Shown: piece after piece, positions 8,773-53,348 of the stretch
Layout: every line of letters begins with the position of its first letter
How positions within the stretch are numbered: the stretch's first letter is position 1
Assembly: GCA_035703635.1 (NCBI GenBank)
Contig: DASSXV010000002.1
Span: 1-54,062 of the forward strand
Source: Trueperaceae bacterium
GTDB lineage: Bacteria; Deinococcota; Deinococci; Deinococcales; Trueperaceae
Length of the DNA: 54,062 nt
Direction of reading: 5' to 3'
Translations under genes and position numbers: made by a program
Notes under the pieces: generated by a model
Databases searched by the model: none
Told to the model about the DNA's origin: nothing
Seen by the model: the letters and a program-made list of their open reading frames with translations, nothing else

Positions 8773-9932
8773 GCGGCGACCTGAGGTTGCCCCAAGCTGG
8801 CGGCGCGCTGACCAGCTACCGCATGCGCACCGACCGACCCACGTTCCACAAGCCCACCGCCCCCATCACCTCGCGCCTCGCGTACGCCGCGGCGCACGTC
8901 GTCAAGGACCCGTTCGGCGCCGCTAGCGGCGAGGGCGCCGTCGACTGGGCGGCCACGTTGGCGTTTCGCGAACACCTGTGGTCGTACGGGCTGGGGGTTG
9001 CGGAGGCGATGGACACGGCACAGCGCGGGATGGGCCTCGACTACGAGGCCACCAAGGTACTGATCGCTCGTTCCTGCGCCGCTGCCAACGCGGCGGGCAG
9101 CGCCATCGTGTGCGGGGCCGCCACCGATCAGCTGCCCGCTGGGGCTCCCGCGTCGTTGGCGACGATAACCGCCGCGTACGAGGAGCAGTGCGAACACATC
9201 GAGGCCGCTGGCGGTCGCGTGGTGGTCATGGCGAGCCGGCACTTGGCCGCCGCCGCCAGGGGCCCGGAGGACTACGCGCAGGTCTACGACCGCGTTCTCT
9301 CACAGGTGCGCGAACCAGTGATCATCCACTGGTTGGGCGAGATGTTCGACCCGGCGCTCGCAGGCTACTGGGGGGCGAGCGACCTTGCCGGCGCCATGGA
9401 CGTCTGCCTCGACGTCATGGGGCGTAACGCAAGCAAAGTCGCTGGCATCAAACTGTCGCTGCTCGATGCCGATAAGGAGGTCAGTTTGCGGGCGCGCTTG
9501 CCTGCTGGCGTGCGCATGTTCACTGGCGACGACTTCAACTACCCCAAGCTCATCTTGGGTGACGGCACTCACCGCTCCGACGCCCTGCTCGGCATCTTCG
9601 ACGCCATAGCCCCCGCCGCCTCGGCCGCGCTGCAGGCCCTGGACGGCAGCGACGAAGCCGAATACGCCCGCATCTTCGATCCAACGGTGCCGCTGTCGCG
9701 CAAGATATTCGAGACGCCCACCTACAACTACAAGACGGGCATCGTGTTCCTCGCCTACCTCAACGGCTTCCAGGAGCACTTCCGGATGGTGGCCGGTCTC
9801 GAGAGCGCCCGCAGCATCGTCCATCTGAGCGAGCTCTTCCGCCTGGCAGACGCCGCCGGCGTGCTGCTCGAACCGGACCTGGCGGTCAGGCGTATGCGGT
9901 TGGTGCTCGAGCTCGCGGGCGTGGCGGCGTGA
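8769..9932 (+). CDS. DUF993 family DHDPS-like TIM-barrel protein
   Basis: AYAAAHVV, AEAMDTAQRGMG, GIKLSLLD, TGDDFNY, YKTGIVFLA. Confidence 0.85.
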   Translation: MSGDLRLPQAGGALTSYRMRTDRPTFHKPTAPITSRLAYAAAHVVKDPFGAASGEGAVDWAATLAFREHLWSYGLGVAEAMDTAQRGMGLDYEATKVLIARSCAAANAAGSAIVCGAATDQLPAGAPASLATITAAYEEQCEHIEAAGGRVVVMASRHLAAAARGPEDYAQVYDRVLSQVREPVIIHWLGEMFDPALAGYWGASDLAGAMDVCLDVMGRNASKVAGIKLSLLDADKEVSLRARLPAGVRMFTGDDFNYPKLILGDGTHRSDALLGIFDAIAPAASAALQALDGSDEAEYARIFDPTVPLSRKIFETPTYNYKTGIVFLAYLNGFQEHFRMVAGLESARSIVHLSELFRLADAAGVLLEPDLAVRRMRLVLELAGVAA

Positions 9933-10759
9933 GCGCAAACAGCGCACGGAGCCTCGAGCGCCTGAGCCTCAACACTGCGACTGTGCGCGGCGCTGACCTG
10001 CTGGAGATGGTGGACGCCTGCGCCCGGCTTGGCATCGGCTGGATAGCCCCGTGGCGGGAACAGTTCGCCCTCGTGCCTGCTGACAAGGCGGCACGCGCCA
10101 TCAAGGACGCTGGCATGCGCGTGTCGAGCTTGTGCCGTGGGGGCTTCTTCCCGGCTGCCACGCAAGCCGAGCGCGACGCGCGCATCGATGAGAACCGGCG
10201 CGCCATCGATGAGGCAGCAGTGCTCGGCACCGACGTGCTCGTGCTCGTGTGCGGCGGGGTGGTGGCTAAGGACATTCGCGGCTCGCGTCAGATGGTGGAG
10301 GACGGCATCAGCGCGTTGCTGCCGTACGCTGCCGAGCGCGGTGTGCGGCTCGGCATCGAGCCTCTGCACCCGCTGTTCGCGGCCGACCGCTCCGTGATAG
10401 TCACCTTGGGCGAGGCGAACGCGCTCGCCCGGCGACTGGCTTCGCCATGGGCTGGCGTGGTGGTGGACGTTTATCACGTGTGGTGGTATCCGCAGGTGGA
10501 GGACGACATCAGCGCGACCGCGGAGCGCATCCTCGGCTTCCACGTCAACGACTGGATAGTGCCCCTGCCAGACATGCTGGCCGGGCGCGGCATGATGGGC
10601 GACGGCCACATCGATATCCGAGGGTTGCGGCTCGCCGTCGACGCGGCGGGTTATTTGGGGCCGATCGAGGTCGAGATCTTCAACGAGGCGTTGTGGGCAA
10701 GGCCCGTTGACGAGGTTCTGCGGCTGCTGCAAGACCGGTATCTGGCAACGGTGGCATGA
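9929..10759 (+). CDS. Sugar phosphate isomerase/epimerase (xylose isomerase-like TIM barrel)
   Basis: LCRGGFF, IEPLHP, DVYHVWW, RGMMGDG, EVEIF. Confidence 0.88.
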   Translation: MSANSARSLERLSLNTATVRGADLLEMVDACARLGIGWIAPWREQFALVPADKAARAIKDAGMRVSSLCRGGFFPAATQAERDARIDENRRAIDEAAVLGTDVLVLVCGGVVAKDIRGSRQMVEDGISALLPYAAERGVRLGIEPLHPLFAADRSVIVTLGEANALARRLASPWAGVVVDVYHVWWYPQVEDDISATAERILGFHVNDWIVPLPDMLAGRGMMGDGHIDIRGLRLAVDAAGYLGPIEVEIFNEALWARPVDEVLRLLQDRYLATVA

Positions 10760-11915: not shown

Positions 11916-12383
11916 CTACGCCCCCGCCAGGCGCGGGTCGAAGCGGAACGGCCGCGGCTCCCCCACTTGCATCTCTGCGTAGCGCGGGTGGCGCACGTTG
12001 ACGACGAGGTTCCTCTCGAGGGGGAGCACGGCGCTAGGCACCCGCAGCGCCAGACTGGCGCCGGAAGCCAACCAGGCGTCGCCGATGGCGGCCGTGCTGC
12101 GTGCGTCTGCCGCGTCGTCCCACCCTGAGGACAGTGCGGCTCTGTCGATGTCGAGGACGGCTGAGTCTGGCAGGCGCGCCTCGATGATCACGTAACTCGC
12201 CTCTAGCAGGGCAGGCCGCGCGTTGTGCGCCAGGACCTCGAGCGCCGCGATGGCCGGGGTGCAACCAAGGTACACGACTGGCCTGCCGACCGAGTTCCAG
12301 CGACCGCCGTATAGCCGAGCGCCCTCACCATCGAACGCCGTTGCCGCGTAGCGCGCCTTGAGGATGCGCCATGCCCTTATCAC
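11916..12383 (-). CDS. RES domain toxin (NAD+ phosphorylase family)
   Basis: AWRI..GEGARLYGGRWN..ALEV..VPSAVLP.ERN; GTG overlaps the antitoxin TGA. Confidence 0.9.
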   Translation of the reverse strand: MIRAWRILKARYAATAFDGEGARLYGGRWNSVGRPVVYLGCTPAIAALEVLAHNARPALLEASYVIIEARLPDSAVLDIDRAALSSGWDDAADARSTAAIGDAWLASGASLALRVPSAVLPLERNLVVNVRHPRYAEMQVGEPRPFRFDPRLAGA

Positions 12384-12841
12384 CCGAAGACGCCGTGCTC
12401 CATGCGGCCGAGGATGGCCAGCGCGCGCTCGGTGCCAGGTCCGTCTTTGGCGACGTCGAGTGGCGCGCCTTGCCCTAATGCCGCGGCCGGCGCGTGCAGC
12501 CACTCGACGGCGGCGGCCGCCGATTCGAGGACTTCGACCGCGCGGGCGTACAGGACGACGTAGCGCCACAGGCGGTCGCTCTCGGTCGCCTCGAAGCGCC
12601 CCGCCGCCTTGCGGCGGTAGAGGGTGCTCTCGCTTATCCGTAAGAGTGCGGCGAACTCGGCCTGCGTCAAGCGCAGCGCCTCGCACAGCTCCGCGAAAAC
12701 GCGGAAGGGTAACCCCTCCTCTATCCGGCGGCTGGCGTCCTTGAGGCTGACGTCCTTGCTGCGCAGGAGGCGCGCGACGGTGCGCTCTGCCGCCTCGGCG
12801 CCGACGGGCGCGGGTTCTGGGTTCCAAGTCTGCACTGCCAT
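12380..12841 (-). CDS. Xre/MbcA/ParS family antitoxin
   Basis: HTH (ISESTLYRRK), ESDRL, WL..P..ALG..PL, EHGVF; AGGAGG RBS. Confidence 0.9.
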   Translation of the reverse strand: MAVQTWNPEPAPVGAEAAERTVARLLRSKDVSLKDASRRIEEGLPFRVFAELCEALRLTQAEFAALLRISESTLYRRKAAGRFEATESDRLWRYVVLYARAVEVLESAAAAVEWLHAPAAALGQGAPLDVAKDGPGTERALAILGRMEHGVFG

Positions 12842-12853
12842 GTTCACCTCCTA

Positions 12854-14993: not shown

Positions 14994-15305
14994 ATGCGCC
15001 TGCTCATGACCCAAGCCAGAGTCGCCCTCTCTGAGGCCGACACGCCAACCACAGTCGCGTGGGACGCCCCAGGGGGCCTCCCCTCCCCCGCCGCGGCACG
15101 CGGAGCCCCGGCCCGCCGGGCCCCGCGCCGCCCGGTGCCGACCAGGCGCGTGGCTAGCATCCTCGACTCGTGGCGCTACGACGGTCGTTGGTGGGAACCA
15201 CGCGAACTCCACCGCGACTACTACCTGCTCGAGTTGGAAGGCGGCGCGCAACTAGAGCTGTTCCGGGAGGGGGATGACTGGTGGGTGGCGAGAACGAGCG
15301 ACTGA
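14994..15305 (+). CDS. DUF6504 family protein (resembles ImuB C-terminal module)
   Basis: ILDSWRYDGRWW..RDYYLLEL..LELFR...W...D; overlaps the dnaE2 start. Confidence 0.75.
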   Translation: MRLLMTQARVALSEADTPTTVAWDAPGGLPSPAAARGAPARRAPRRPVPTRRVASILDSWRYDGRWWEPRELHRDYYLLELEGGAQLELFREGDDWWVARTSD

Positions 15306-18300
15306 CGGCTCTCCTCAACGTGCACTCCTACTTCAGCCTCGGCGCTGGCACGGCGAGCCCAACCACGCTCGTGGAGCGCGCCGCGGCCCTCGGCTACCGC
15401 TACCTGGCGCTCACGGACGACCTCAACGTGACGGGCGGCGTCGAGCTGTTCCAGGCGGCCCGTAAGCACGGCGTCAGGGCGCTGATCGGCGCAACCGTGC
15501 CCGTCAGCATCGAGGGTGAGGCGTACCCGTTCGTGCTCATCGCCGCCTCGCGCGCCGGGTACGGCACCCTCTGCAGGCTAATCAGCGTGGCGCACTCGCG
15601 CGACGAGAAGGACGTTCCGCTGTCCGTGCTCCTCGCGCATACTCACGACCTCATCCTTCTGTCCGGCCCGCGCGCTGGCGTGGTCGCCCAGTTGCTCGCC
15701 AAGCGCCGCGTTGCCGAACTCGAGAGGGTCTTGCGGCTACTGCAGGGGGCGTTCCCTGGGCGCTTCTACCTGCAGCTTTTCCACGACCGCTACCGTTGGG
15801 ACGCGCGCCGCGCCCGCGTCATCAGGCGTTTGGCGCAGAGCCTCGGGTTGCCTGTCGCGAGCGCGCCAGAGGTGCGTTACGCGGCCGCGGACGACTACCG
15901 CCTGTACGACGCCATCACGTGCGCGCGGCTAGGGATCAGCGTGCAGCAACCGCACGCCAAGCGGCCGCAGAACGCCTGTCAGGCCCTCCCGAGCCCCGGC
16001 GAGGCGTTGGGGCGCCTGCCGTTCCCAGACGCGGCCCTGAACGCCGCCTGGGTGGCTGAGAGCGCCTACTTCGAGCTGCTACCGGAGCGCCTCACCCCAC
16101 CAAAGGCGCGCGTTCCCGGCGGCGAGGCGCCGGAACGCTACTTGGAGGAGCGTTGTTACACGGCGCTGGTGCAGCGCTACGCGGGCGAACGTCTCGCGGA
16201 GGCGCGCACGCGCTTCGAGGAGGAGTTGACGACCATCCGCGCCCTCGGCCTTGCCGACTTCTTCCTCGTCGCCGCCGAGGTCACCGATTACTGCCGCCGC
16301 CACGGCATCTTGGCGGCGGGGCGCGGCTCGGCAGCGGCCAGCATCGTCTGCTACCTCTTGGGCATCACCATGGCGGACCCCCTGAAGCACGATCTGCTCT
16401 TCGAGCGCTTCCTGCACACGGGCAAGACGAGCATGCCTGACGTCGACATCGACATCTCGTCCGCGCGCCGCGACGAGGTGCTTGCGTGGGTCGAGGAGCG
16501 CTTCGGCGCAGACACGGAGGCCATGGTGTGCAACAAGATCACCTACCGCCTCCCCCTAGCCATCCAGGACCTTGGGCGCGCCCTCGGCCTGCCACCCGAA
16601 CTGCGCAACCGCCTAACGAAGGCGCTTGGGCGCGACTTCCGTGGGCTGCGGCCCACCAGCGCGGCCAAGGCGGAGGTCGTGCTGCGCGAGGTTTTCGGCG
16701 AGGCGCCCGTGGCCGACGCGTTCCTCGGCCTCCTCGGCAGCATGGAGCGCAAGCACGTGCGTCACCTCGCGCCGCACTCCGGCGGCGTGGTGCTGGCGCG
16801 CGACCCGCTAACGCACTACTCGCCGCTCGAACGTTCGAGCGGCGGCATCAAGCTCCTGCAACTCGACAAGGACGACGCCGAGGCCATGGGTCTCATCAAG
16901 CTCGACCTGCTCGGCCTGCGCATGTTGGCGGCGCTTGAGCGGGCGCGGGAGGAGGTCATGCGTCTCGACGGGGTGTGGCTCGACCTCGCCGAGCTTCCGG
17001 ACGACGTCCGCGTCTGGGACCTCATCTCCGAGGGAGCTACGTTGGGGCTGTTCCAAGTGGAGAGCCCGAGCCAGCAGCACACGAGCCGCGTCATGCGCAG
17101 CCGCAACCTGCGCGACCTCGCGCACCAGGTGGCCCTCATCCGTCCAGGGCCCATCCAGTCAGGCACGGTGCACCCGTACCTGCGCCGCAGGCAGGGGCTC
17201 GAGCCGGTCAGTTACTGGCACCCTAGCCTGCAGCCCATCCTCGAGAAGAGCTACGGCGTGCTCCTCTTCCAGGAGGACGTGCTGCGCATCGCCGTGCACT
17301 TCGCCGGCATGAGTTGGATCGAGGCCGACCGTTTCCGCAAGAAGGTGTCGGACTGGAGCGAGCCGTCAGACATCGAACCAGACAGGCGGATGTTCGTGGC
17401 AGGCGCCATGCGTCACGTGAACGCCACCTTGGAAGAAGCCGAACGGGTATTCGACGCCGTCAAGGGCTTCCAGGGTTTCGGCTTCGCCGAGTCTCACGCT
17501 TGGGCTTTCGCCATCCACGCCTACGCGAGCGGCTGGCTACGCGTGCACTACCCCGCCGAGTACTTGGCTGCCATCCTCACGGAGGAGCCGGGCATGTGGT
17601 CGCAGTCGACCAAGCGCCAGGAGGCGCGCGCGTGGGGCGTGCCCATGCTCCCGTTCGCCATCAACGCCAGCGGGGTGCATTACCGGTGCGAGCGCGTACG
17701 CCTAGCGGACGGCGCGCCGGCGAAGGCCGTGCGCCCTCCACTGTCGGCCGTGGCTGGCATCAGTCAGGACGTGGCGCGGCAAGTGCTGCTCGAGCGGTTG
17801 CAGCGCGGCCCGTACACGGGCATCGACGACGCCCACCAGCGTCTGACCCTCTCACGCGAGCAGTTCGAGGCATTAGCACGTGCGGGCGCGTTCGACGAGC
17901 TTCAGCCCCGCCGCGAGGTCCTCTACCGGGCGGGCGCGTTGGCCAACACCAGCCGAAGCGGTGAACGCGGGTTGTTCAGCGCCGCGCCGCAGGCGCCTGC
18001 GTTCGCGCCCCTCACCGTGCAGGAGCAGTACGTGTGGGACTACCAGACCACGCGCTTCAGCACCCTCGAGGTGCACGCCATCGACTTCGTGCGCGATCAA
18101 CTGCGCGAGCTTGCTTGCGTGCCCCTCGCGCGCTTGCGTCAGGTGCCGCGCAAGACCGTGGTGCGCACCGCGGGGCTCGTCGTCGGCAAGCAGCGGCCGC
18201 CTACGGCGAAGGGCTTCGCCTTCTACGTGCTCGAAGACGGCCCGGTGCGCGCGCAACTGATCATCTCACCCGACCTGTGGGACGCCCAGCGGGTGCTGCT

Positions 18301-18427
18301 GCGTGACGCTTCGATCCTGGTCGTCGACGCCGTGGTGGAGGACACGGGCTACCAGCTCACCCTCAAGGCCCAGACGCTCGCCGAGCTGCCGGCGCCGGTA
18401 ACCGTGCGGGGATACCACTTCGCTTGA
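15281..18427 (+). CDS. dnaE2: Error-prone DNA polymerase III alpha subunit
   Basis: PHP (HSYFS), GRGSAA, catalytic PDVDID and KLDLLGL, FAESHA, QRPPTAKG OB motif; short C-terminus. Confidence 0.92.
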   Translation: MGGENERLTALLNVHSYFSLGAGTASPTTLVERAAALGYRYLALTDDLNVTGGVELFQAARKHGVRALIGATVPVSIEGEAYPFVLIAASRAGYGTLCRLISVAHSRDEKDVPLSVLLAHTHDLILLSGPRAGVVAQLLAKRRVAELERVLRLLQGAFPGRFYLQLFHDRYRWDARRARVIRRLAQSLGLPVASAPEVRYAAADDYRLYDAITCARLGISVQQPHAKRPQNACQALPSPGEALGRLPFPDAALNAAWVAESAYFELLPERLTPPKARVPGGEAPERYLEERCYTALVQRYAGERLAEARTRFEEELTTIRALGLADFFLVAAEVTDYCRRHGILAAGRGSAAASIVCYLLGITMADPLKHDLLFERFLHTGKTSMPDVDIDISSARRDEVLAWVEERFGADTEAMVCNKITYRLPLAIQDLGRALGLPPELRNRLTKALGRDFRGLRPTSAAKAEVVLREVFGEAPVADAFLGLLGSMERKHVRHLAPHSGGVVLARDPLTHYSPLERSSGGIKLLQLDKDDAEAMGLIKLDLLGLRMLAALERAREEVMRLDGVWLDLAELPDDVRVWDLISEGATLGLFQVESPSQQHTSRVMRSRNLRDLAHQVALIRPGPIQSGTVHPYLRRRQGLEPVSYWHPSLQPILEKSYGVLLFQEDVLRIAVHFAGMSWIEADRFRKKVSDWSEPSDIEPDRRMFVAGAMRHVNATLEEAERVFDAVKGFQGFGFAESHAWAFAIHAYASGWLRVHYPAEYLAAILTEEPGMWSQSTKRQEARAWGVPMLPFAINASGVHYRCERVRLADGAPAKAVRPPLSAVAGISQDVARQVLLERLQRGPYTGIDDAHQRLTLSREQFEALARAGAFDELQPRREVLYRAGALANTSRSGERGLFSAAPQAPAFAPLTVQEQYVWDYQTTRFSTLEVHAIDFVRDQLRELACVPLARLRQVPRKTVVRTAGLVVGKQRPPTAKGFAFYVLEDGPVRAQLIISPDLWDAQRVLLRDASILVVDAVVEDTGYQLTLKAQTLAELPAPVTVRGYHFA

Positions 18428-18466
18428 CTGGCCTCTCCCCTACTCGCGGGTGGGGCTAAGTAAGGT

Positions 18467-18734
18467 GGGGAATCGGGGGGACGCAGGGTGTCTTGGCGCC
18501 GCCTGGCTCCGCCAAGTACCCTAGATTCCCCCTTACGCTAGCGAGAGTGCGGCCTCGCCTGTCCGTCCGCTCGCCGACAGCCCCCTCACAAGTACCCCTC
18601 GCTTCCCCTTTGGCCTCCCCGGTACCCCGCCTTCCCCACCTGCGGCGCGGTTCCCTGCCCGAAGAGAGAAACCTCACACAGCTAGCAGTACCGCGGTCTC
18701 CCCCGTTGGACGACCGGCGTCCCCGCGCTTCCCC
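18467..18734. repeat. Distal array of iteron-like repeats, mostly inverted
   Basis: Five GT(A/C)CC-N-T(T/C)CCCC-like units near 18516, 18592, 18622, 18688 and 18719, plus one forward GGGGAATCGGGGGGAC at 18467. Confidence 0.65.
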
Positions 18735-18741
18735 ACTACAG

Positions 18742-18769
18742 AAAAGCCCGGCGTGACGTCACGCCGGGC
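18742..18769 (-). terminator. Intrinsic terminator downstream of bcp/parB
   Basis: Perfect 24-bp palindrome GCCCGGCGTGACGTCACGCCGGGC followed by TTTT on the minus strand. Confidence 0.7.
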
Positions 18770-18792
18770 CGCCTTCCATGTGACCGCGATCG

Positions 18793-19266
18793 TTACGCTG
18801 CGGCCTTCAGTTCCTGGATGGCGCTCCTGATCTCCTCGGCATGGCCTTCTGGTACGACGTCATCCCACGCCCGTGCCACTCTCCCGCTCGGGTCGACGAG
18901 GTACGAGCGGCGGAAGACGCCCATCTTGACGACTCCGTCCTTACCCTTGTCTCCGTAGGCGCCGTACGCCTTGAGGGTCGTCAGCTCCGGGTCGACCAAC
19001 AACGGGAAGTTGAGGTCGTACTTACGCGCGAACGCCAGGTGGCTCTCCTGATCGTCGGCCGAGATGCCGAAGACCTTAGCGCCAACCCCCTCGAAGTGCG
19101 GTAACGCGTCGCGAAACTGACACGCTTCCGTCGTGCAGCCTGGCGTATCGTCCTTCGGGTAAAAGTACACGACGACCCATGACCCGAGCTGGTCTGACAG
19201 TCGCTGGATGTTGCCTGCCTGGTCAACCAGCGCGAAGTCTGGAGCCTTATCTCCTACCTTGAGCAT
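18793..19266 (-). CDS. bcp: Peroxiredoxin Bcp/PrxQ
   Basis: YFYPKDDTPGCTTEAC. Confidence 0.95.
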   Translation of the reverse strand: MLKVGDKAPDFALVDQAGNIQRLSDQLGSWVVVYFYPKDDTPGCTTEACQFRDALPHFEGVGAKVFGISADDQESHLAFARKYDLNFPLLVDPELTTLKAYGAYGDKGKDGVVKMGVFRRSYLVDPSGRVARAWDDVVPEGHAEEIRSAIQELKAAA

Positions 19267-19334
19267 GCTGCTACCTCCTGCACCCAGCCTAGCTCGGAGT
19301 CGGGCGTAGGAGCGCTCCGGTGGTGCATCTACCC

Positions 19335-20288
19335 CTAGTCTTCGACCAGCAGGCGGTTGAGTTCGTCGAGGAGTTCGGTGACGCGGCCAAGCTTGCCTGG
19401 ACCTAGTGCGCCAAGGCGCCGCTTGTTGAGGAGGCGCTTGGTGCTCGCGACCAGCTGCTGCGCTGCGGGCGACACCGCCCCGCCAGCAGCGCTCTCCTCC
19501 ACCCCGTCCCCGACCCGCAGCTCGGTGATGCGTCTACGAATCTGGCTCAGTGACAGCCCTTCGCCAACCGCCTCTGCCAGCAACCTCCGCTGCGCCTTCC
19601 TGTCGCTTAGCCGCGCGATGGCCTGCGCCTTCGTGAACGCCAACTGGCCGCCTCTGACGGCGTCGAGCAGCTCTGGCGGGAACTCGAGAATCGGCAACCT
19701 GTTCGTGACGAACGACGACACGCTGAAGCGCCCCAACTGCCTGAACAGCGCGCTCGCCTCGTCGCGGCGCGCCCGGTCGACCGGCCTGGAGCTGCCCCTG
19801 CCACGCTCTTCGTTGTAGAGCGCCTGAAGAAGCGCGACGACCTCGCCCCGTGAGCTGTCCAGCGCCAGCTCCAGCAACCCGAGCACCGCCTCCGTCTCCT
19901 CGACCGCGTTGAGGTCCTCGCGTTGGAGGTTCTCCGTGATGGCGATCTCGAGCGCCTCGCGGTCGTCGAGCTCCACGACGAGCGCGGGCACCTCTTTGAG
20001 CCCAGCGGCCCGCGCTGCCCGCGCGCGCCGTTCGCCCGCGACGACCTCGTAACCCTGACCCTTGCGCCTCACGATGATGGGCTCGAGTACGCCCTTGTCA
20101 CGGATGCTTGCCGCCAAGTCCTCGAGGCTGGCGGCGTCGAAGTGCTTGCGTGGCTGCTGGTCGTTGTACTGCAACTCGGCAAGTGCAACGCCCGCCACCC
20201 CGGCCGTTGGCTCGACGGCGCCTAGGTCGCCGAGGATAGCCTCGAACACCGCTGCGCGGTCGATGTCCTGCTTGCGCTTCTTAACCAC
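19335..20288 (-). CDS. parB: ParB partition protein (CTPase + HTH)
   Basis: QPRKHFD, GVLEPI, AGERR, ENLQREDLN. Confidence 0.95.
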   Translation of the reverse strand: MVKKRKQDIDRAAVFEAILGDLGAVEPTAGVAGVALAELQYNDQQPRKHFDAASLEDLAASIRDKGVLEPIIVRRKGQGYEVVAGERRARAARAAGLKEVPALVVELDDREALEIAITENLQREDLNAVEETEAVLGLLELALDSSRGEVVALLQALYNEERGRGSSRPVDRARRDEASALFRQLGRFSVSSFVTNRLPILEFPPELLDAVRGGQLAFTKAQAIARLSDRKAQRRLLAEAVGEGLSLSQIRRRITELRVGDGVEESAAGGAVSPAAQQLVASTKRLLNKRRLGALGPGKLGRVTELLDELNRLLVED

Positions 20289-21096
20289 GGCCGTCTCCCT
20301 CTAGGCGCTCCAGCAGCTCGCCAGTCACCTGCCTGATCTCCTTGTCCGCCTCGCTGCCCTTAGCGTAAAGCGAGATCGGCATGCCGTTCACTTGCGCGTC
20401 CGAGTAATAGGCCGGTCTGCTGCCTAGCGGCGTGGACACCGGCGCCACCGCCGTGAGCTGCTCACGGATGACGCCGAGCACGTCACGATCGTGGCGCGTG
20501 CGGCGGTCGTGCTGCGTGAGCACGAACAGCGCGATCTCGAGTCCGGTTGCCGCCTTGCGGTACTCCTTGACCATGCGGATGACGGTCGGGATGCCATCGA
20601 GCCCTTTGCGGTTGGTTGGCAGCGGCACCACAACTCGGTCGGCCGCCACCACGGCTAGGGCAGACAACTGGCCGAGGCTAGGCGGCGGGTCGATCAGCAC
20701 GTAGTCGTAACCCTCCAGGCGCCTCACGGCTTCGCGCAGGCGCATGACGCCCATGAAGACGCTGAGGATCTCGCGCTCCACGATCGCGATGCTGAGGTTG
20801 CTTGGGATGAGGTCCATGCCGTGAACGCGCATGGGCGCCGGCAGAACCAGCTCGTCGTCCGCCGCCAACTTGCTGCCGCCGTCGTCACGATCGAGGTCGC
20901 CGAGCACGGCAGGGTAGATGGTCTGCGCCAGCGCGACGTCATCGTCTACTCCGAGCCACTTCGTCAAGTTCGCTTGCGGGTCGACGTCGATGAGCAGGAC
21001 CTTGCGTCCTAGCTCGCTTAGGACGTACCCGACGTCACGGGCGGTGCTCGTCTTGGCAACGCCGCCGGCGTGGTTGAAGAACGTCAGTACCTTCAC
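20281..21096 (-). CDS. parA: ParA partition ATPase
   Basis: NHAGGVAKT, IDVDPQANLT, IDPPPSLG; GGAGG RBS before GTG 21096. Confidence 0.95.
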   Translation of the reverse strand: MKVLTFFNHAGGVAKTSTARDVGYVLSELGRKVLLIDVDPQANLTKWLGVDDDVALAQTIYPAVLGDLDRDDGGSKLAADDELVLPAPMRVHGMDLIPSNLSIAIVEREILSVFMGVMRLREAVRRLEGYDYVLIDPPPSLGQLSALAVVAADRVVVPLPTNRKGLDGIPTVIRMVKEYRKAATGLEIALFVLTQHDRRTRHDRDVLGVIREQLTAVAPVSTPLGSRPAYYSDAQVNGMPISLYAKGSEADKEIRQVTGELLERLEGDGRG

Positions 21097-21275
21097 AACT
21101 AGCGCCTCCTGGAGAACAGCCCGGTTGGGCCGGGCGCGGCCAACGCACGACCGCGGCGCGCTCGACTTGAGCAACTGTTGCGGATTGTACCCCGCGCTCT
21201 GGTGAGCGCCGTTCGGCTGGCAGTTGCGGCGCTGGGTGGGCGCGCCGTAGGCGTCTCCCCGTTGTGCGTCGTTGT

Positions 21276-21481
21276 CGCTATAACGCTATTGCGGATAGGG
21301 GAGGCTTCGGCGGGCAGCCAGCACCTGGCGGAGCGCCCCTGACTCTGGCCGCCATAACGTTATGGCGGCCTCGACCCGCTTCAGACACCTGAACCGCGCA
21401 GGCAACACGCAGCGGTGAGCCTGCTCAGGGTTGAGGAAGGCTCCTACACGCTTCCGACGCCCCGCCATAACGTTATGGCGG
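21276..21481. promoter_or_regulatory. Putative parS centromere: three palindromes
   Basis: GGCCGCCATAACGTTATGGCGGCC (21347-21370), CCGCCATAACGTTATGGCGG (21462-21481), degenerate CGCTATAACGCTATTGCGG (21276-21294). Confidence 0.7.
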
Positions 21482-21580
21482 CCCTTGAAACAGGGGCTTA
21501 GCTACCACCTGTTCCGCGAGGCTCGTGATCACCTCGGCCTAGCGCCAGGCGCGGCGACCCACGCTCGGGTACCGGCCGCT

Positions 21581-21606
21581 TCCCACTTAGGCCTCCCACT
21601 TAGGCC
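21581..21606 (+). repeat. 13-bp perfect tandem repeat
   Basis: TCCCACTTAGGCC x2. Confidence 0.85.
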
Positions 21607-21912
21607 ACCCGACTGCGTCCACGGCCGCAAGAGGTAACGGCGGCGCCCGGAGTACCCTCCGATACCCACATGACTCGCCAGCGCCTCTCTCGCTGGGCGC
21701 TGGCCTGCACGCTTGGCGATCGGACCCGAGCAGGGGAGAGGAGTCACGCTCACCAAACCCCGGTGCCGACGGAGAAATCTCCACGTAGGCAACCACGGCG
21801 TACCGTTCTAGGCGCTGGCGCCGCCAGCATCAGGCGCAGCTCGGAGTCGAGGGCTGTTGGCCGCTCCGACCCGAACGAAATCGGCAGGCCGCCAGGGCGC
21901 CGGCAGAAGTCA

Positions 21913-22371
21913 GCGGGGAAATCTGCGGGACTAAGGTCAGGTAGTGGGGAACCTGCGGAACCGCTGGGGTCCGCGACTGCGGTCGCCGACAGCGCGCGCT
22001 TAGGCAATCGAAGGGGGAAATCAGGGGAACCTCGGCGCTCAGCCTGGTGCAAGTGGGACAGTCGGGGGACCTTCGGGCGTGGGGTGGATCCTTCTTGACT
22101 TGCTACCAGCAGCACTGGTTGCTGTTCTTTAGACAAGGAGCTTTACATTCTCTTTAATGGCCGGCCGACGGGGCCCGTCCCTGACGCGAGAATCAGACTT
22201 CGGCCGGGAAAGCGGCGGTACGCTCGTGGGACAGCGCGGGGACCGAAGCGGGACGTGCGCGGTACGCGTGTGGGCAACGGAGGGTACCAAGGGGGAACGG
22301 CAAGGTACCGAGGAGGGGAAATGGGGGGACCAAAGCGACGCGGCTCCGGTAAGTGGGGAAGAAGGGGGAAA
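21913..22371 (+). other. Putative iteron-type replication origin (oriV)
   Basis: Two clusters of GG(G/T)A(A/C) half-sites at 10-11 bp phase flank an AT-richer stretch (~22090-22158), immediately upstream of the Rep_3 gene. Confidence 0.7.
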
Positions 22372-22515
22372 GGTTGACCACGACTCCCCACTAGCCGTAT
22401 CATCTGCGCAAGCACAGGGCGCGGTCGGCGCCCGCGACGGCGAGCAAGGCTGGGCTTAGCCTAACGCCAACGTCTGAACCGCAGGCGGACGCCCAACCAA
22501 GGGGAGTAGGTAAGC

Positions 22516-24042
22516 GTGACAACGAGCGAGGCCTACGACGGGGACGGCGCAAGCGCCCGGAGAGGCGAGACCGCGGTAGAAGCCGGCACGCCACCCATAG
22601 GCGAGCTCGTCGAACCGCTCGGCGGCCGCCACCGCACGCAGCGGCCAAGGAGCAAGATGAGGCAGGCGCCTCGGCGCGCCGGCAGCTCGTTGGCCGTCAC
22701 TCAGGCCAACCCCCTCGCCCTCAGCAGGCAAGAGATGGGCATCCTCACCAAGCGCCTGCTCGTGCTTGCCTTGTCGGACATCAGCAAAGAAGATCTCACG
22801 CTCGAACCGATCCGCATCACGGCCTGGGAGTACGCGCAGCTTTTCAACATCAGCGGCAAGAGCATCTATTCGCGCATCGAAGAATCGGCTAGGGAACTGC
22901 TCGAGCAGACCATCCAGATCAAGGAGCCGAACGGCGACTGGGTGATGTTCCAGTGGGTGTCGGAAGCGCGTTACGACAACGGTCGCGAGGCGGGGCAGAT
23001 GGCCGCGATCGAGATCAAGATTCACGACCGCCTCAAGCCGTACCTCCTGCAGCTGCGCCGCGACTTCAGCATCATCCCGACCGACCAGCTGTTGTCGTTC
23101 GAGAGCTTCAACAGCATGCGTCTCTTCGAAGTGCTCTACACGGCGAGTTACGCAGGCGAGCGCAACCAACTGATCTTCGACGTCGACGACCTCAAGCTCC
23201 GGCTCGGGCTCGACGGCAAGTACGAACGCTTCAAGGACTTCCGCTACGTTTTAGACAGGGCACAAGAGGAGTTCGCAGCCTATACGTCACTCGCGTTCGA
23301 CTACGAACCACACAAGGTGGGCCGCAAGTTCCAAAGGGTGTCGTTCAGCATCAGGCGCAACGACGTCTTCCAACCGCGCGTCCGCTTGCCTGCCAGCCTC
23401 GCGAGCCGGGTGGCCAAGAGCGCGGACAAGGAGCAACTCCTCAAGGAGCTCCAGGCGGCGGACGCGCTGCGCGACATCGGCTGGACCCAAGACCCCGAGC
23501 GCAGCGTCGCGCGTCACGGCGCGCAACGCGTCCTCGACGTGGTGGCATACGCCCGCGTACTCCAGGAGCGCTCCGAGCGCGCCGGCCGCCCGATATTCAA
23601 CCTCGGCGGCTTCGTCAACAGCCTCCTCCAGCAGGGAGTAGAGCCGCCCAAGCAAGACGTTGCCGAGGCCAGCGGACCGCAGCCGCTCAACCGCGAACAG
23701 GCGCGCGCCATCGCCACCACCATCGCAGACGCCATGCACCGCGCAAGGCGGCAGCTGGCGGAGTCCGCATGGGACGACCTCAACCGCGACCAACGCGACC
23801 TCGTCCACACGCTGATGCAGGCAACCGTCCACCGCTTCACGCTCGAACGCCTCGAAGCAGACGGCTGGCAAGGCGCACTGTACGAAGCCAGTCGCATGGA
23901 CGTCATGACCACCCACAACTTCCTGACGCTCCCACCCCACCTGCAAGATCTCGCGTCGTACCTCAAGACCTACGACCCGCTCGTCGAGTACGGACCGGAG
24001 GAGCGCGCGAAGATCCTCGCTGAACTCAAGGAAGTCCAGTAG
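22516..24042 (+). CDS. Rep_3 (RepB/RepE-like) replication initiator with C-terminal extension
   Basis: QAN.L..SR, WVSEARY, LKPYLLQL, SMRLFEVL, GKYERFKDF..VL..A..E, KVGRK; GGGGAG RBS. Confidence 0.9.
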   Translation: MTTSEAYDGDGASARRGETAVEAGTPPIGELVEPLGGRHRTQRPRSKMRQAPRRAGSSLAVTQANPLALSRQEMGILTKRLLVLALSDISKEDLTLEPIRITAWEYAQLFNISGKSIYSRIEESARELLEQTIQIKEPNGDWVMFQWVSEARYDNGREAGQMAAIEIKIHDRLKPYLLQLRRDFSIIPTDQLLSFESFNSMRLFEVLYTASYAGERNQLIFDVDDLKLRLGLDGKYERFKDFRYVLDRAQEEFAAYTSLAFDYEPHKVGRKFQRVSFSIRRNDVFQPRVRLPASLASRVAKSADKEQLLKELQAADALRDIGWTQDPERSVARHGAQRVLDVVAYARVLQERSERAGRPIFNLGGFVNSLLQQGVEPPKQDVAEASGPQPLNREQARAIATTIADAMHRARRQLAESAWDDLNRDQRDLVHTLMQATVHRFTLERLEADGWQGALYEASRMDVMTTHNFLTLPPHLQDLASYLKTYDPLVEYGPEERAKILAELKEVQ

Positions 24043-24052
24043 GAGGCAAGCC

Positions 24053-24715
24053 ATGTGCGGTCGTTACACCCTCTACCACCATGAGGACGACCTGGCGTCA
24101 CTCTTCGAAGTCGCCACGTTCCCGCTCGAGGAACGCTACAACATCGCTCCAACGCAACTCGTTCCCGTCGTGAGGGAACGCCAGGACGGCACTCGCGAGC
24201 TAGACAGTATGCGCTGGGGGCTAGTGCCTCACTGGGTGAAGGACCCGAGCGAGTTCAAGGCCAACCTGTTCAACGCCCGCTCGGAGAGCGCGGCAGAGAA
24301 GCCATCGTTCCGGGACGCCATGAAGAACGGGCGCTGCCTCATCCCGGCCAGCGGCTTCTACGAGTGGAAAGCCGCAGGTAGCGGCAAGCAGCCATACTTC
24401 ATCCACCGCAAGGACGGCGCCCCGCTGGCGTTCGCGGGCCTCTACGCGTACTGGGGCAGGGGAGAGGGCGCGCTACTCAGCTGCACCATCCTCACGACCG
24501 ACGCCAACGACGACATGCGGCCGCTACACGACCGCATGCCCGTGATCCTCGAAGCGGCGGCATGGGAGAGATGGCTGGACCCAGGCGAACACGACCCCAG
24601 GGCAGTCGAAGACCTGCTGACGCCAGCCGCGGACGGCCTGCTCGAGAGCTGGCCGGTGGCCAAGACAGTGGGCAACGCGCGCGTAGACTCCCCTGAGCTA
24701 GTCGCGAGAGCGTGA
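24053..24715 (+). CDS. SOS response-associated peptidase (SRAP/YedK/HMCES abasic-site crosslinker)
   Basis: MCGRY N-terminus, RYNIAPTQ, NARSE, GFYEW, HDRMPVIL. Confidence 0.95.
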   Translation: MCGRYTLYHHEDDLASLFEVATFPLEERYNIAPTQLVPVVRERQDGTRELDSMRWGLVPHWVKDPSEFKANLFNARSESAAEKPSFRDAMKNGRCLIPASGFYEWKAAGSGKQPYFIHRKDGAPLAFAGLYAYWGRGEGALLSCTILTTDANDDMRPLHDRMPVILEAAAWERWLDPGEHDPRAVEDLLTPAADGLLESWPVAKTVGNARVDSPELVARA

Positions 24716-35581: not shown

Positions 35582-39423
<3,842 letters not shown>

Positions 39424-51590: not shown

Positions 51591-52095
51591 GACGCCCAAG
51601 GCCTGAGTCCCACAACTTGCGACCGACGATGATCTGGCCAGCGTGCGCGTGGCCATGTTCGAGCAGGTGCTGGATTATGAGCACGCTCCGAACTGGCACC
51701 TGCTTCCGCCCTACGTGACGAACCACCTCGAGGTCGTTCAGATCGTACGACTTGAGCCCCTCCCCCACCACGCGCAGGCGCTCGAGGCAGAGCTGCAGAA
51801 CGCCTTCAGGGTCGGCGTGGTCGATGGCCATCTCGAGTGGACCCTGGGCGCGCAGCTCCTCGCCGATATCCTCTCCCGTCGCGTACAACCACAGCCGCGT
51901 GCTCGACCCGCCGATGTGCCTCACGAGCCCAGCGATGGGGTTGATCGAACCTGGTGCGGGCGTCCACCACCAGGCCTCGGCGGGCAACGCGTCCGTCCAG
52001 CGCTCGACGACTTCGACGAGGTGCTGATGGCCACGCAGCCAGGCGGAAACTAGTGGAGTGCTTCCCGGAACATCACCGCTCAAGAATGGGTCCAT
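51583..52095 (-). CDS. DinB/DUF1572 family protein
   Basis: NPIAGLVRHI, HLLEH..AHAGQI. Confidence 0.8.
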   Translation of the reverse strand: MDPFLSGDVPGSTPLVSAWLRGHQHLVEVVERWTDALPAEAWWWTPAPGSINPIAGLVRHIGGSSTRLWLYATGEDIGEELRAQGPLEMAIDHADPEGVLQLCLERLRVVGEGLKSYDLNDLEVVRHVGRKQVPVRSVLIIQHLLEHGHAHAGQIIVGRKLWDSGLGRPI

Positions 52096-52241
52096 ACGAG
52101 GATGGTATCTGGGACCGTGAACCAGAGTCAGCTAGCGTGAACGGAGCGCCGGAGGCCACGCCGCTCTCTGGCTTGAGCGGGCTAGGGCGAAGCGTTGCGT
52201 TCGCACGCCCCGCGAGGCGGCCACCGCCCACAGATTTGATA

Positions 52242-53348
52242 ATGCGACGAACTTCACCCCCCGTTTCCCCTTCCGCCCTTAGGCTAGCCGCGATGGTTGA
52301 GCAGGAGCCCGTCACCTCCCTCGAGTTGTCGTCCGCCACGGCGCTACAGCGCGTAGCGCGCCTGCAGCGCTTGTCGGAGGAGGCGCTCCGGCGCTACGCC
52401 ATGCGCGCCGCCGCGGAGCGAGACGAGGACGCGTTGTGGGAACTCATCGAGGCCCACTTGACCCTGCGCGGGCTGAGCGGCGTGATGACAAGCAAGCACA
52501 CGCTGAGGGCTTATCGCCGCGGCCTGCACGAGCTGCTCCTCATGTGGACGGGCGAGAACCTGCTGCGGCCAACGCGCGACGCCGGGCCCCTCTACGTGCA
52601 GCGCTTGTTAGCAGGCGAGCGCGACGAGCTGCTCGCCAGTGAGCCGCCAACCTCCCGGCGCGGCCGCAAGTCAAAGACCGGACCGCTGAGCGCGGCAACG
52701 GTGGCCCTGCGCGTGGCGGCCGCCCGCGCCCTCTACGACTCATTGGCGTGGGCGGGAGCTACGGACGTCGATCCGTTCCGCGACGTGCGCATCGGCCGCG
52801 CCGCCAGCCACGCCGCTGAAGGTGTCGGCACGCGCAACTACACGGAGTTCGAACTCATCGAACTGCAGGCAGCAGCCCACGACCAGCAGGAGCGCGTGAT
52901 CCTGCTGCTCGGCTCTCACGCCGGGCTGCGCGTCAGCGAGATGCTCGCCCTCACCTGGGAGGCGGTCGACTTGCGTGCTGGCGAGCTCACGGTCGTGGCG
53001 GGTAAAGGCAATAAGTCAGCTACCGTCGACCTCACCCCCAAGCTGGTCGAGGCGCTCCTCAAGTACCGGCGCGAGATGGACGCGGGTGGCGTGCCGCGGC
53101 CGTACGTGCTCGAGCTTAGGTCGCAGTTCGGGGTGTTCAACCGCCTCGAGAAGCTCTGCCTGCGGGCCGCCGTGACCTTCAAGGGCGTGCACGCCCTGCG
53201 CCACTCGGCAGGCACCCGCCTCTACCGGCAGACTGGCGACCTCGGGCTGGTGCAAGACCACCTGCGCCACGCCACCCTCGACATGGCCCGCCACTACGCC
53301 AAGAGCGACCGCCGGCGGCTACGCTCCAAGTTGGACGACTGGGGTTAG
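52242..53348 (+). CDS. Tyrosine recombinase (Xer/integrase family)
   Basis: Intact catalytic set: GLRVSE, GKGNK, HALRH, LRH, HY; SAM-like TLRAY; start inferred. Confidence 0.92.
   Translation: MRRTSPPVSPSALRLAAMVEQEPVTSLELSSATALQRVARLQRLSEEALRRYAMRAAAERDEDALWELIEAHLTLRGLSGVMTSKHTLRAYRRGLHELLLMWTGENLLRPTRDAGPLYVQRLLAGERDELLASEPPTSRRGRKSKTGPLSAATVALRVAAARALYDSLAWAGATDVDPFRDVRIGRAASHAAEGVGTRNYTEFELIELQAAAHDQQERVILLLGSHAGLRVSEMLALTWEAVDLRAGELTVVAGKGNKSATVDLTPKLVEALLKYRREMDAGGVPRPYVLELRSQFGVFNRLEKLCLRAAVTFKGVHALRHSAGTRLYRQTGDLGLVQDHLRHATLDMARHYAKSDRRRLRSKLDDWG

Follow-up and report, generated by a model that had tools for sequence, protein, structure and literature searches.

The layouts of mini-F (oriS/RepE) and of P1 (oriR/RepA-incA) bring together iterons, incA and a partition operon, and RepT is the initiator of the Thermus thermophilus megaplasmid pTT27. 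Here we describe a locus of comparable makeup, an iteron origin with a Rep_3 initiator gene (rep) and a parAB operon, in a metagenome bin of a Trueperaceae bacterium (G000; 88 contigs, 2.9 Mb). The window that we analysed is one entire contig of this bin (C2; 54,062 bp). We conclude, with a probability of roughly 80%, that its 18.4- to 24.1-kb segment serves to maintain a chromid, a circular secondary replicon of low copy number that has been vertically kept by at least eight Trueperaceae genera. All genomes compared here are metagenome bins, so absent genes can be binning losses.

Secondary replicons of other bacteria provide the nearest cellular comparisons. As described in parts of two reports, chromosome II of Vibrio cholerae is an essential secondary replicon with an RctB-dependent iteron origin and has parAB2 beside that origin (PMC3688505, PMC3937223). 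For chromosome II and the megaplasmid of Deinococcus radiodurans (cisII and cisMP), sections of one study describe arrays of 18-bp direct repeats and AT-rich DNA upstream of parAB, with centromeres distinct from that of chromosome I; in those sections origin binding is assigned to DnaA and the iterons are treated as parS-like (PMC7671480). Passages on T. thermophilus, of the same phylum, attribute to pTT27 its own ParABS system, encoded by parABm (PMC10085754, PMC4409726).

The original prediction for this DNA had named a parB-parA pair, parS-like palindromes, iterons with an AT-rich stretch and an intact Rep_3 gene. All of them are present in the window, together with a second iteron array that lies at the very edge of the predicted locus and of which the prediction made no mention:

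18465–18737, no strand: distal array of six iterons (19-mer; five minus-strand copies and one plus-strand copy) in the gap separating the 3′ ends of dnaE2 and prxQ
19335–20288, minus strand: ParB (ParB_N and HTH_ParB domains by Pfam), the replicon's own predicted centromere-binding protein
20281–21174, minus strand: ParA, a Walker-type partition ATPase (AAA_31/CbiA by Pfam)
21275–21483, no strand: three parS-like palindromes upstream of parA, two perfect 22-mers and one degenerate copy
21566–21670, minus strand: two inverted iteron copies and a tandem GCYTCCCACTTAG pair
21914–22072, plus strand: four dispersed direct iterons to the left of the AT-rich stretch
22085–22165, no strand: AT-rich stretch (46.9% GC), a candidate DNA-unwinding element
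22204–22333, plus strand: six tandem iterons in 21- to 22-bp phase, consensus GKGGGRMANNNNNGGKACC
22347–22403, plus strand: rep promoter and inverted half-iteron pair, a candidate autorepression operator
22516–24042, plus strand: Rep_3 initiator of 508 amino acids with WH1, WH2 and helical C-terminal domains (Pfam and structure model)

Both domains assign the initiator to the Rep_3 family. Rep3_N (PF01051) scored 82.9 bits against a cut-off of 22.4 over residues 61 to 207, and Rep3_C (PF21205) scored 46.1 bits against 21.1 over residues 223 to 279; iteron binding and origin opening are its predicted activities, by analogy with the family. The protein does not belong to either named subfamily compared, since it scored below the NCBIfam cut-offs for RepE (PRK13742; 44.4 versus 342 bits) and RepM (NF038290; 79.2 versus 250 bits). 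Among the 72,556 plasmid records of PLSDB, 687 matched, all below 60% identity, and no plasmid Rep exceeded 33% identity. A phmmer search retrieved the structures of RepE and pPS10 RepA at E values of about 1e-4. A structure model built with 26 orthologues (mean pLDDT 73 and pTM 0.40, so that agreement is to be read at the domain level only) contains WH1 (residues 76 to 183), WH2 (198 to 281) and a confident helical C-terminal domain (302 to 507). Foldseek matched this model to RepE (2z9o; E 1.2e-6) and Pi (2nra; E 8.6e-6), with TM scores of 0.44 to 0.49 normalised to the target, and more weakly to RctB domains 2-3 (E 2.5e-3), suggesting a RepE/Pi-like fold at the level of domains. The C-terminal part (residues 281 to 508; window 23356–24039) comprises about 200 conserved, helical residues, many of them invariant. 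It has no Pfam match, and Foldseek returned no match beyond the WH1-WH2 part; plasmid Reps of Geobacillus and Hymenobacter align to Rep only up to about residue 390 to 440.

The partition genes overlap by 8 bp (20281–20288) and form one operon. This ParB shares 52% identity with the chromosomal ParB encoded on contig C8, over 118 amino acids only, and the two ParA proteins share 28%. The two perfect 22-mer palindromes, CCGCCATAACGTTATGGCGGCC, lie at 21349 and 21462 and have the core GCCATAACGTTATGGC, and the third copy (73%) lies at 21275. The 16-bp palindrome was not found elsewhere in the G000 genome, allowing up to two mismatches, and its 12-mer core, CATAACGTTATG, is perfect in 32 of the 39 related loci having about 1.8 kb or more of upstream DNA. 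Canonical parS, TGTTTCACGTGAAACA, occurs in G000 at C8:23359 and C55:2897. The C8 copy is situated between dnaA (C8:19658-20971) and a second parAB (C8:24118-25312); dnaA, which was to be looked for on C2, is on C8 instead. Judged from its genes and repeats, the C2 system appears to be a ParABS of the usual class, with an operon for ParA and a two-domain ParB and a private palindromic candidate centromere nearby.

Between parA and rep lie 1.34 kb of non-coding DNA. The iteron is a 19-mer with the consensus GKGGGRMANNNNNGGKACC, which we scanned for with the reduced fixed-gap pattern GGGN8GGDAC. This pattern has 22 matches in the window versus 6.6 expected, a number reached in none of 100 shuffles; 13 of them fall at 21569–22330 and six at 18467–18734. 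Across the whole genome the pattern occurs 197 times, and it clusters, in groups of at least three matches spaced 120 bp apart or less, at just three places, all on C2. About 12 iterons surround the AT-rich stretch, the 60-bp minimum of which (22098–22157) has 41.7% GC, compared with 66.9% for the contig. This stretch is therefore real, as had been claimed, but it is not unique, tying for the third-lowest 60-bp GC window of the contig. A sigma-70-like promoter, TTGACC-18-TATCAT, lies at 22374–22403 (one site found versus 0.1 expected), and the inverted half-iterons at 22347–22359 and 22385–22397 form a pair that reaches between the promoter hexamers. We also considered DnaA boxes as a feature of the window and rejected them: TTATCCACA with up to two mismatches gave 49 matches versus 37.7 expected. 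The arrangement of direct 19-bp iterons, within the 17- to 22-bp size usual for the family, beside the initiator gene and an AT-rich stretch appears to be a Rep_3-type origin. The distal array, which adds iterons outside the minimal origin, is a candidate copy-control locus of the incA/incC kind.

These elements suggest how the replicon might be maintained. Rep monomers would attach to the 19-bp iterons that flank the AT-rich stretch, open the duplex there and bring in the host replisome, and Rep bound to the inverted half-iterons in its own promoter would repress rep. The distal, inverted six-iteron array beyond parB may titrate Rep or handcuff the origin iterons, which would hold copy number down. 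ParB would bind the private palindrome GCCATAACGTTATGGC, and ParA would segregate copies independently of the chromosomal ParABS, which would use canonical parS. We infer all of these binding, firing and copy-control steps by analogy with Rep_3 plasmids.

Two genomes of the window's own genus indicate that the module lies outside the main chromosome. The first, G003, is 98% complete and consists of one 2,919,400-bp contig that we take to be a circularised chromosome, because its last 100 bases equal its first 100. It has dnaA; Rep and YggS were not found in it, and neither was the NAD-dependent DNA ligase LigA, by protein search or with family TIGR00575 (best match, 18.9 bits). When 52 kb of C2 was compared with G003, one 1.4-kb gene and paralogue-level pieces matched, and about 1 kb matched for 20 kb each of C32 and C67, whereas a 20-kb control stretch from another G000 contig (C15) was collinear with G003 over about 19 kb at 73 to 78% identity. 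Two further bins of 10 contigs each (G056 and G118; 97% complete) have neither Rep nor LigA.

The second genome, G015 (20 contigs), has two Rep-replicon contigs, C15 (176,504 bp) and C14 (79,826 bp). By synteny with the window, the end of C15 and the start of C14 fall inside polX. At its far end C14 shares exactly 77 bp with the beginning of C15, and the terminal 200 bases of C14 have no further match in the genome. Because of this unique overlap and the polX junction, the two contigs appear to close into a circle of about 256 kb that carries Rep, parAB, LigA and YggS; dnaA lies outside it, on C16. The contig ends at the polX junction (L107 and L095) are poly-G/C runs that look like assembly or sequencing artefacts, which would explain the break. 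In G000 itself, exact 141-bp end overlaps define a unique path, C51 to C2 to C32 (reversed) to C67, of 155,895 bp; no 141-bp overlap to any other contig was found, and the path has dead ends at C51 and C67. G015 has the same order, and there the counterparts of the two dead ends are separated by about 17 kb that span the 77-bp junction. GC content is 67.1% for the scaffold and 66.4% for the genome. A 215-kb contig of another genome (G041:C18) showed no end overlap.

Gene content points in the same direction. Two widely conserved single-copy genes lie on C2:

31666–32454, minus strand: YggS, the second such gene on the contig
35609–37660, plus strand: NAD-dependent DNA ligase LigA, the only copy in G000

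The search for a second ligA, which had been suggested as a check, found LigA to be single-copy in G000. It lies on the Rep contig in nine genomes (G000, G004, G015, G017 and G041 to G045). The last five were picked for their long Rep contigs, and in all five LigA is on the Rep contig, 1 to 3 kb from rep; in other members of the genus the two genes fall on separate short contigs, so that their linkage there is uninformative. Outside the clade, LigA is chromosomal in all six single-contig genomes of other genera (G020, G070, G096, G097, G129 and G143) and is found megabases into the largest contig of both G067 and G074. Within the clade the chromid-borne LigA proteins are 60 to 94% identical. 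Their identity drops to 41 to 46% against the chromosomal enzymes of sister genera, although DnaA of those genera stands at 70 to 74%, and it is 39 to 46% against LigA of other families of the phylum. This divergence suggests either fast evolution after relocation or a foreign ligase displacing the ancestral one, and both fit. An in-frame TGA had been flagged in LigA of G015, G016 and G008; we rejected it for G015, in which the gene is intact (680 amino acids) and the flag reflects a match running past its own stop. As a separate observation, G010 contains two DnaA (98% and 74%) and two LigA (94% and 72%) proteins and is a mix of two related populations, in keeping with its 4% contamination.

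A family scan of the 46 ORFs of the window also confirmed the other predicted housekeeping neighbours (PolX, PdxK, carbonic anhydrase and KtrAB, besides LigA and YggS). The placement of the module among housekeeping genes thus stands as far as the genes go, but not as a chromosomal placement, since the window is the whole of C2. The C2 replicon appears to combine plasmid-type replication and partition, a chromosome-like GC content and core genes that are chromosomal elsewhere, the properties that Harrison and colleagues (cited in PMC5378121) reportedly set out for chromids in 2010. We would class it as a chromid because it carries LigA, a core gene, and it presumably cannot be lost, because it carries the only ligA together with yggS, polX and a dnaE2 cassette.

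We then compared the locus across 128 genomes of the family, representing 36 genera. Single-copy Rep orthologues (62 to 94% identity) are present in 52 genomes and eight genera, including 13 of the 17 other genomes of the window's genus; remoter paralogues (26 to 38%) occur in other genera, and no Rep homologue was found in 16 sampled genomes of four other families of the phylum. The order dnaE2-(prxQ)-parB-parA-origin-rep-SRAP is kept in G013, G014, G015, G017 and G041 to G043. The synteny comparison that had been called for thus argues that the module is not a recent insertion, because it is syntenic across eight genera. Across the 32 genomes in which DnaA matched at full length, Rep and DnaA identities rise and fall together (Spearman 0.89), Rep being compared with the protein of the window; kin are not independent, and the coefficient is a description of co-divergence rather than a test.

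The cis-elements are conserved as well. We scanned 45 of 51 related loci, having dropped two with too little upstream DNA (L023 and L046) and four fragments (L039, L049, L051 and L064). Three or more forward-strand iterons, mostly at 21- to 22-bp spacing, occur within 1.5 kb upstream of rep in all 45, with 0 to 5 reverse-strand matches per locus. A 60-bp GC minimum of 33 to 50% lies between two iteron groups in 44 of the 45, the exception (L016) having N there. Minus-strand iterons at about −0.6 to −1.3 kb from rep were present in every one of the 27 loci scanned for them. The minus-strand distal array (three or more copies at −3.0 to −5.5 kb from rep) was present in 18 of the 27 loci with enough sequence and absent in nine, five of which have one or two plus-strand copies near −3.0 to −3.3 kb.

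One of the remoter paralogues has a setting of its own. In G096, a 37% Rep paralogue (locus L116, G096:C1:1282001-1302000; 8830–10179 of the locus, minus strand) lies inside a single 4.29-Mb contig. Its gene is preceded by eight tandem iterons (GGGAGCAATCTAGGGTC, about 21 bp), an AT-rich stretch, further iterons and a 53% PrxQ homologue, and the locus has 60.9% GC. ParA and ParB were not found within 10 kb by tblastn. This module is possibly an integrated relative of the C2 replicon type.

The original prediction had also proposed GC skew as a check. In all five contigs analysed, mean skew steps up across the origin from left to right, by 0.02 to 0.05 (P = 3e-6, 6e-4, 0.0015, 0.034 and, for the window, 0.19). 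The step thus has the expected sign in the longer relatives, but the window alone shows no V. The step is carried largely by the 20 to 45 kb beside the origin, and mean absolute skew in chromosomal contigs is only 0.015. Along the G000 scaffold the skew curve drops as far as the origin, where it has its minimum, and then levels out. Unidirectional replication would be a speculative reading of the skew. We rejected skew as proof of firing, given the lack of a clean V and the non-significant step of the window; it is compatible with an active origin and suggestive, not decisive.

Further genes flank the module or lie elsewhere on the contig:

11916–12847, minus strand: RES-Xre toxin-antitoxin pair, which may stabilise the replicon post-segregationally
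15281–18427: gene of the error-prone polymerase DnaE2 (by family scan), its 3′ end facing the distal iteron array
18793–19266, minus strand: PrxQ peroxiredoxin, a conserved passenger adjoining parB
24053–24715, plus strand: SRAP (YedK-like) protein, a conserved neighbour downstream of rep
51954–53348, plus strand: tyrosine recombinase of 464 amino acids, a candidate dimer-resolution enzyme

The RES toxin was identified at E 1.7e-33 and the Xre-type antitoxin at 97 bits, above the cut-off of NF049845. Their genes overlap by 4 bp, and the pair is conserved beside dnaE2 in G013 and G015. The tyrosine recombinase is syntenic in G015, G041 and G043, has a 41% paralogue on C13 and may be the replicon's own dimer resolvase; the two would fit roles in stabilisation and dimer resolution. 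Their presence qualifies the earlier statement that mobile-element genes are missing: no transposase, conjugation or phage structural family was found among the 46 ORFs, yet this recombinase and the RES-Xre pair are there. Genes of DNA metabolism cluster near the origin (DnaE2, SRAP, LigA, PolX, a DEDD 3′-5′ exonuclease and an ExeM/NucH nuclease), with MgsA on C67 and LexA-like and ImuB-like genes, which adjoin dnaE2 in relatives, on C51. In G041 and G043 a LexA-like S24 peptidase, an ImuB-like Y-family protein and DnaE2 form one contiguous SOS-type mutagenesis cassette by the origin. The cassette of G000 has two parts, at C51:14575-16885 and C2 15281–18427, with about 30 kb between them on the scaffold, and in G042, too, the counterpart of the C51 part is distant from dnaE2. 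Otherwise the replicon (C32, C67 and C51) encodes mostly accessory functions: sugar and uronate catabolism, sulfatases, ABC and MFS transporters and regulators.

Several observations weigh against a chromid. The G000 scaffold has dead ends and is unclosed, so physical separateness in G000 comes by homology and is inferred from the G015 circle and the G003 chromosome of the same genus. The closure of G003 depends on one 100-bp terminal overlap, and the G015 circle depends on one k-mer overlap and one synteny-inferred junction with poly-G/C contig ends. G013 has a Rep contig yet is without LigA and YggS, genes that may have been lost in binning. The AT-rich 60-bp minimum is only a joint third-lowest, and no DnaA box (TTATCCACA) with one mismatch or fewer was found in the origin region. 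The skew step of the window is not significant, and the 256 kb of G015 show no clean V, skew being mostly positive on one strand. The paralogous Rep-iteron module within the 4.29-Mb contig of G096 implies that such modules can be chromosomal. Finally, an island of about 15 kb in G000 (C23:39849-55000) is missing from G003, which is collinear with G000 on both sides of it, and the first 11 kb of this island, chromosomal in context in G000, lie on the Rep contig of G015, beside dnaE2. The island came to light because C23 40–60 kb served as our second control stretch, for which the result was accordingly mixed. Its sequence context appears to show gene traffic between chromid and chromosome, not a junction of the whole replicon.

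Some of these points would suit a replicon that has become part of the main chromosome, either as a second origin or as a silenced fossil, and fusion into the chromosome had been the other half of the original prediction. The open scaffold ends, the exchange between replicons shown by C23 and the Rep-iteron-PrxQ module of G096 speak for it. We consider integration unlikely: nothing in G000 supports fusion; its 156-kb scaffold, although open at both ends, is tied to no other contig by a 141-bp overlap; the closed chromosome of the same genus is without the module; G015 closes into a circle without chromosomal DNA; and the cis-elements are intact and conserved, which is unexpected of a fossil. 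The chromid half of the prediction, in turn, is supported by that closed chromosome, which lacks both module and LigA, and by the circle of about 256 kb. An ordinary, dispensable megaplasmid with redundant or non-essential housekeeping genes would account for the mostly accessory content of C32, C67 and C51, for the toxin-antitoxin pair and for the closest PLSDB Reps being ordinary plasmid initiators. We think this quite unlikely, given that G000 has only the one LigA gene and the closed G003 chromosome lacks it altogether, that the single Rep gene keeps its synteny and co-diverges with DnaA across eight genera, that replicon GC equals genome GC, and that conjugation genes were not found in family scans of the window and scaffold contigs. 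That C2 is chimeric or comes from another organism, as the 88-contig bin and one related Rep contig under an unrelated taxon label (L051) might suggest, is very improbable, because the bin without C2 would have no LigA, independent bins show the same contig order, C2 is joined to C51 and C32 by exact 141-bp overlaps, and C2 composition matches the genome.

If the replicon is a chromid, a further scenario can be sketched, which we offer tentatively and consider rather doubtful. An old chromid, present in at least eight genera, might have captured the sole replicative ligase, along with polX, yggS and the SOS-type dnaE2 cassette, within 1 to 13 kb of its origin, after which chromosome replication would have depended on a plasmid-type replicon. 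Its LigA may be a foreign displacer, and the inverted arrays bracketing parAB may loop out the partition operon, coupling replication licensing to partition.

None of the papers listed in our literature searches reported a secondary replicon in Trueperaceae. A chromid here would add the family to the lineages with a divided genome, and would be a clear case of a sole replicative DNA ligase beside a plasmid-type origin, a strong form of chromid "locking-in". It would also bear on how bins are judged: G003 and the two 10-contig bins score 97 to 98% complete yet are without LigA and YggS, a missing replicon being invisible to the score because marker-based completeness does not see it. A shuttle vector for these little-studied bacteria could be built on the compact 5.7-kb module, with its conserved 19-bp iteron and 16-bp centromere.

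Compared with mini-F and P1, the C2 locus shares a WH1-WH2 initiator with a fold match to RepE, its own partition operon and centromere, direct iterons beside an AT-rich stretch, an inverted half-iteron in the rep promoter and an iteron array outside the origin. It differs in the extra conserved helical C-terminal domain of about 200 amino acids, in having its second array beyond parAB and not just after rep, in belonging to a replicon of 150 to 260 kb that carries the cell's only ligA, and in a Rep with at most 33% identity to any in PLSDB and scores below the RepE and RepM cut-offs. With V. cholerae chromosome II it has in common its own parAB beside the origin, diverging from the initiator gene, and the fold match to RctB domains 2-3; unlike that system, its initiator is a canonical Rep_3 protein and not RctB, and the other G000 contigs hold no iteron cluster; neither 39-mer-type sites nor a crtS-like chromosomal site came to light, though no search was aimed at them. 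The likeness to cisII and cisMP of D. radiodurans lies in the shared phylum and in repeat arrays near parAB on secondary replicons. The Deinococcus repeat, T(G)CCACAAAGTGCCA(G)CAGG, is however unrelated to the iteron GKGGGRMANNNNNGGKACC, and on C2 the initiator is a Rep_3 protein with a gene of its own, the candidate centromere is a separate palindrome, and the origin holds no DnaA box at one mismatch or fewer. The C2 replicon resembles pTT27 of T. thermophilus, of the same phylum, in being a secondary replicon that has a ParABS system of its own, but homology to its Rep was not detected in the sampled genomes of other families. By analogy, the C2 origin would work like the F and P1 replicons and Vibrio chromosome II; the type of system is known, and what is new is a member in Trueperaceae with the only ligA by its origin.

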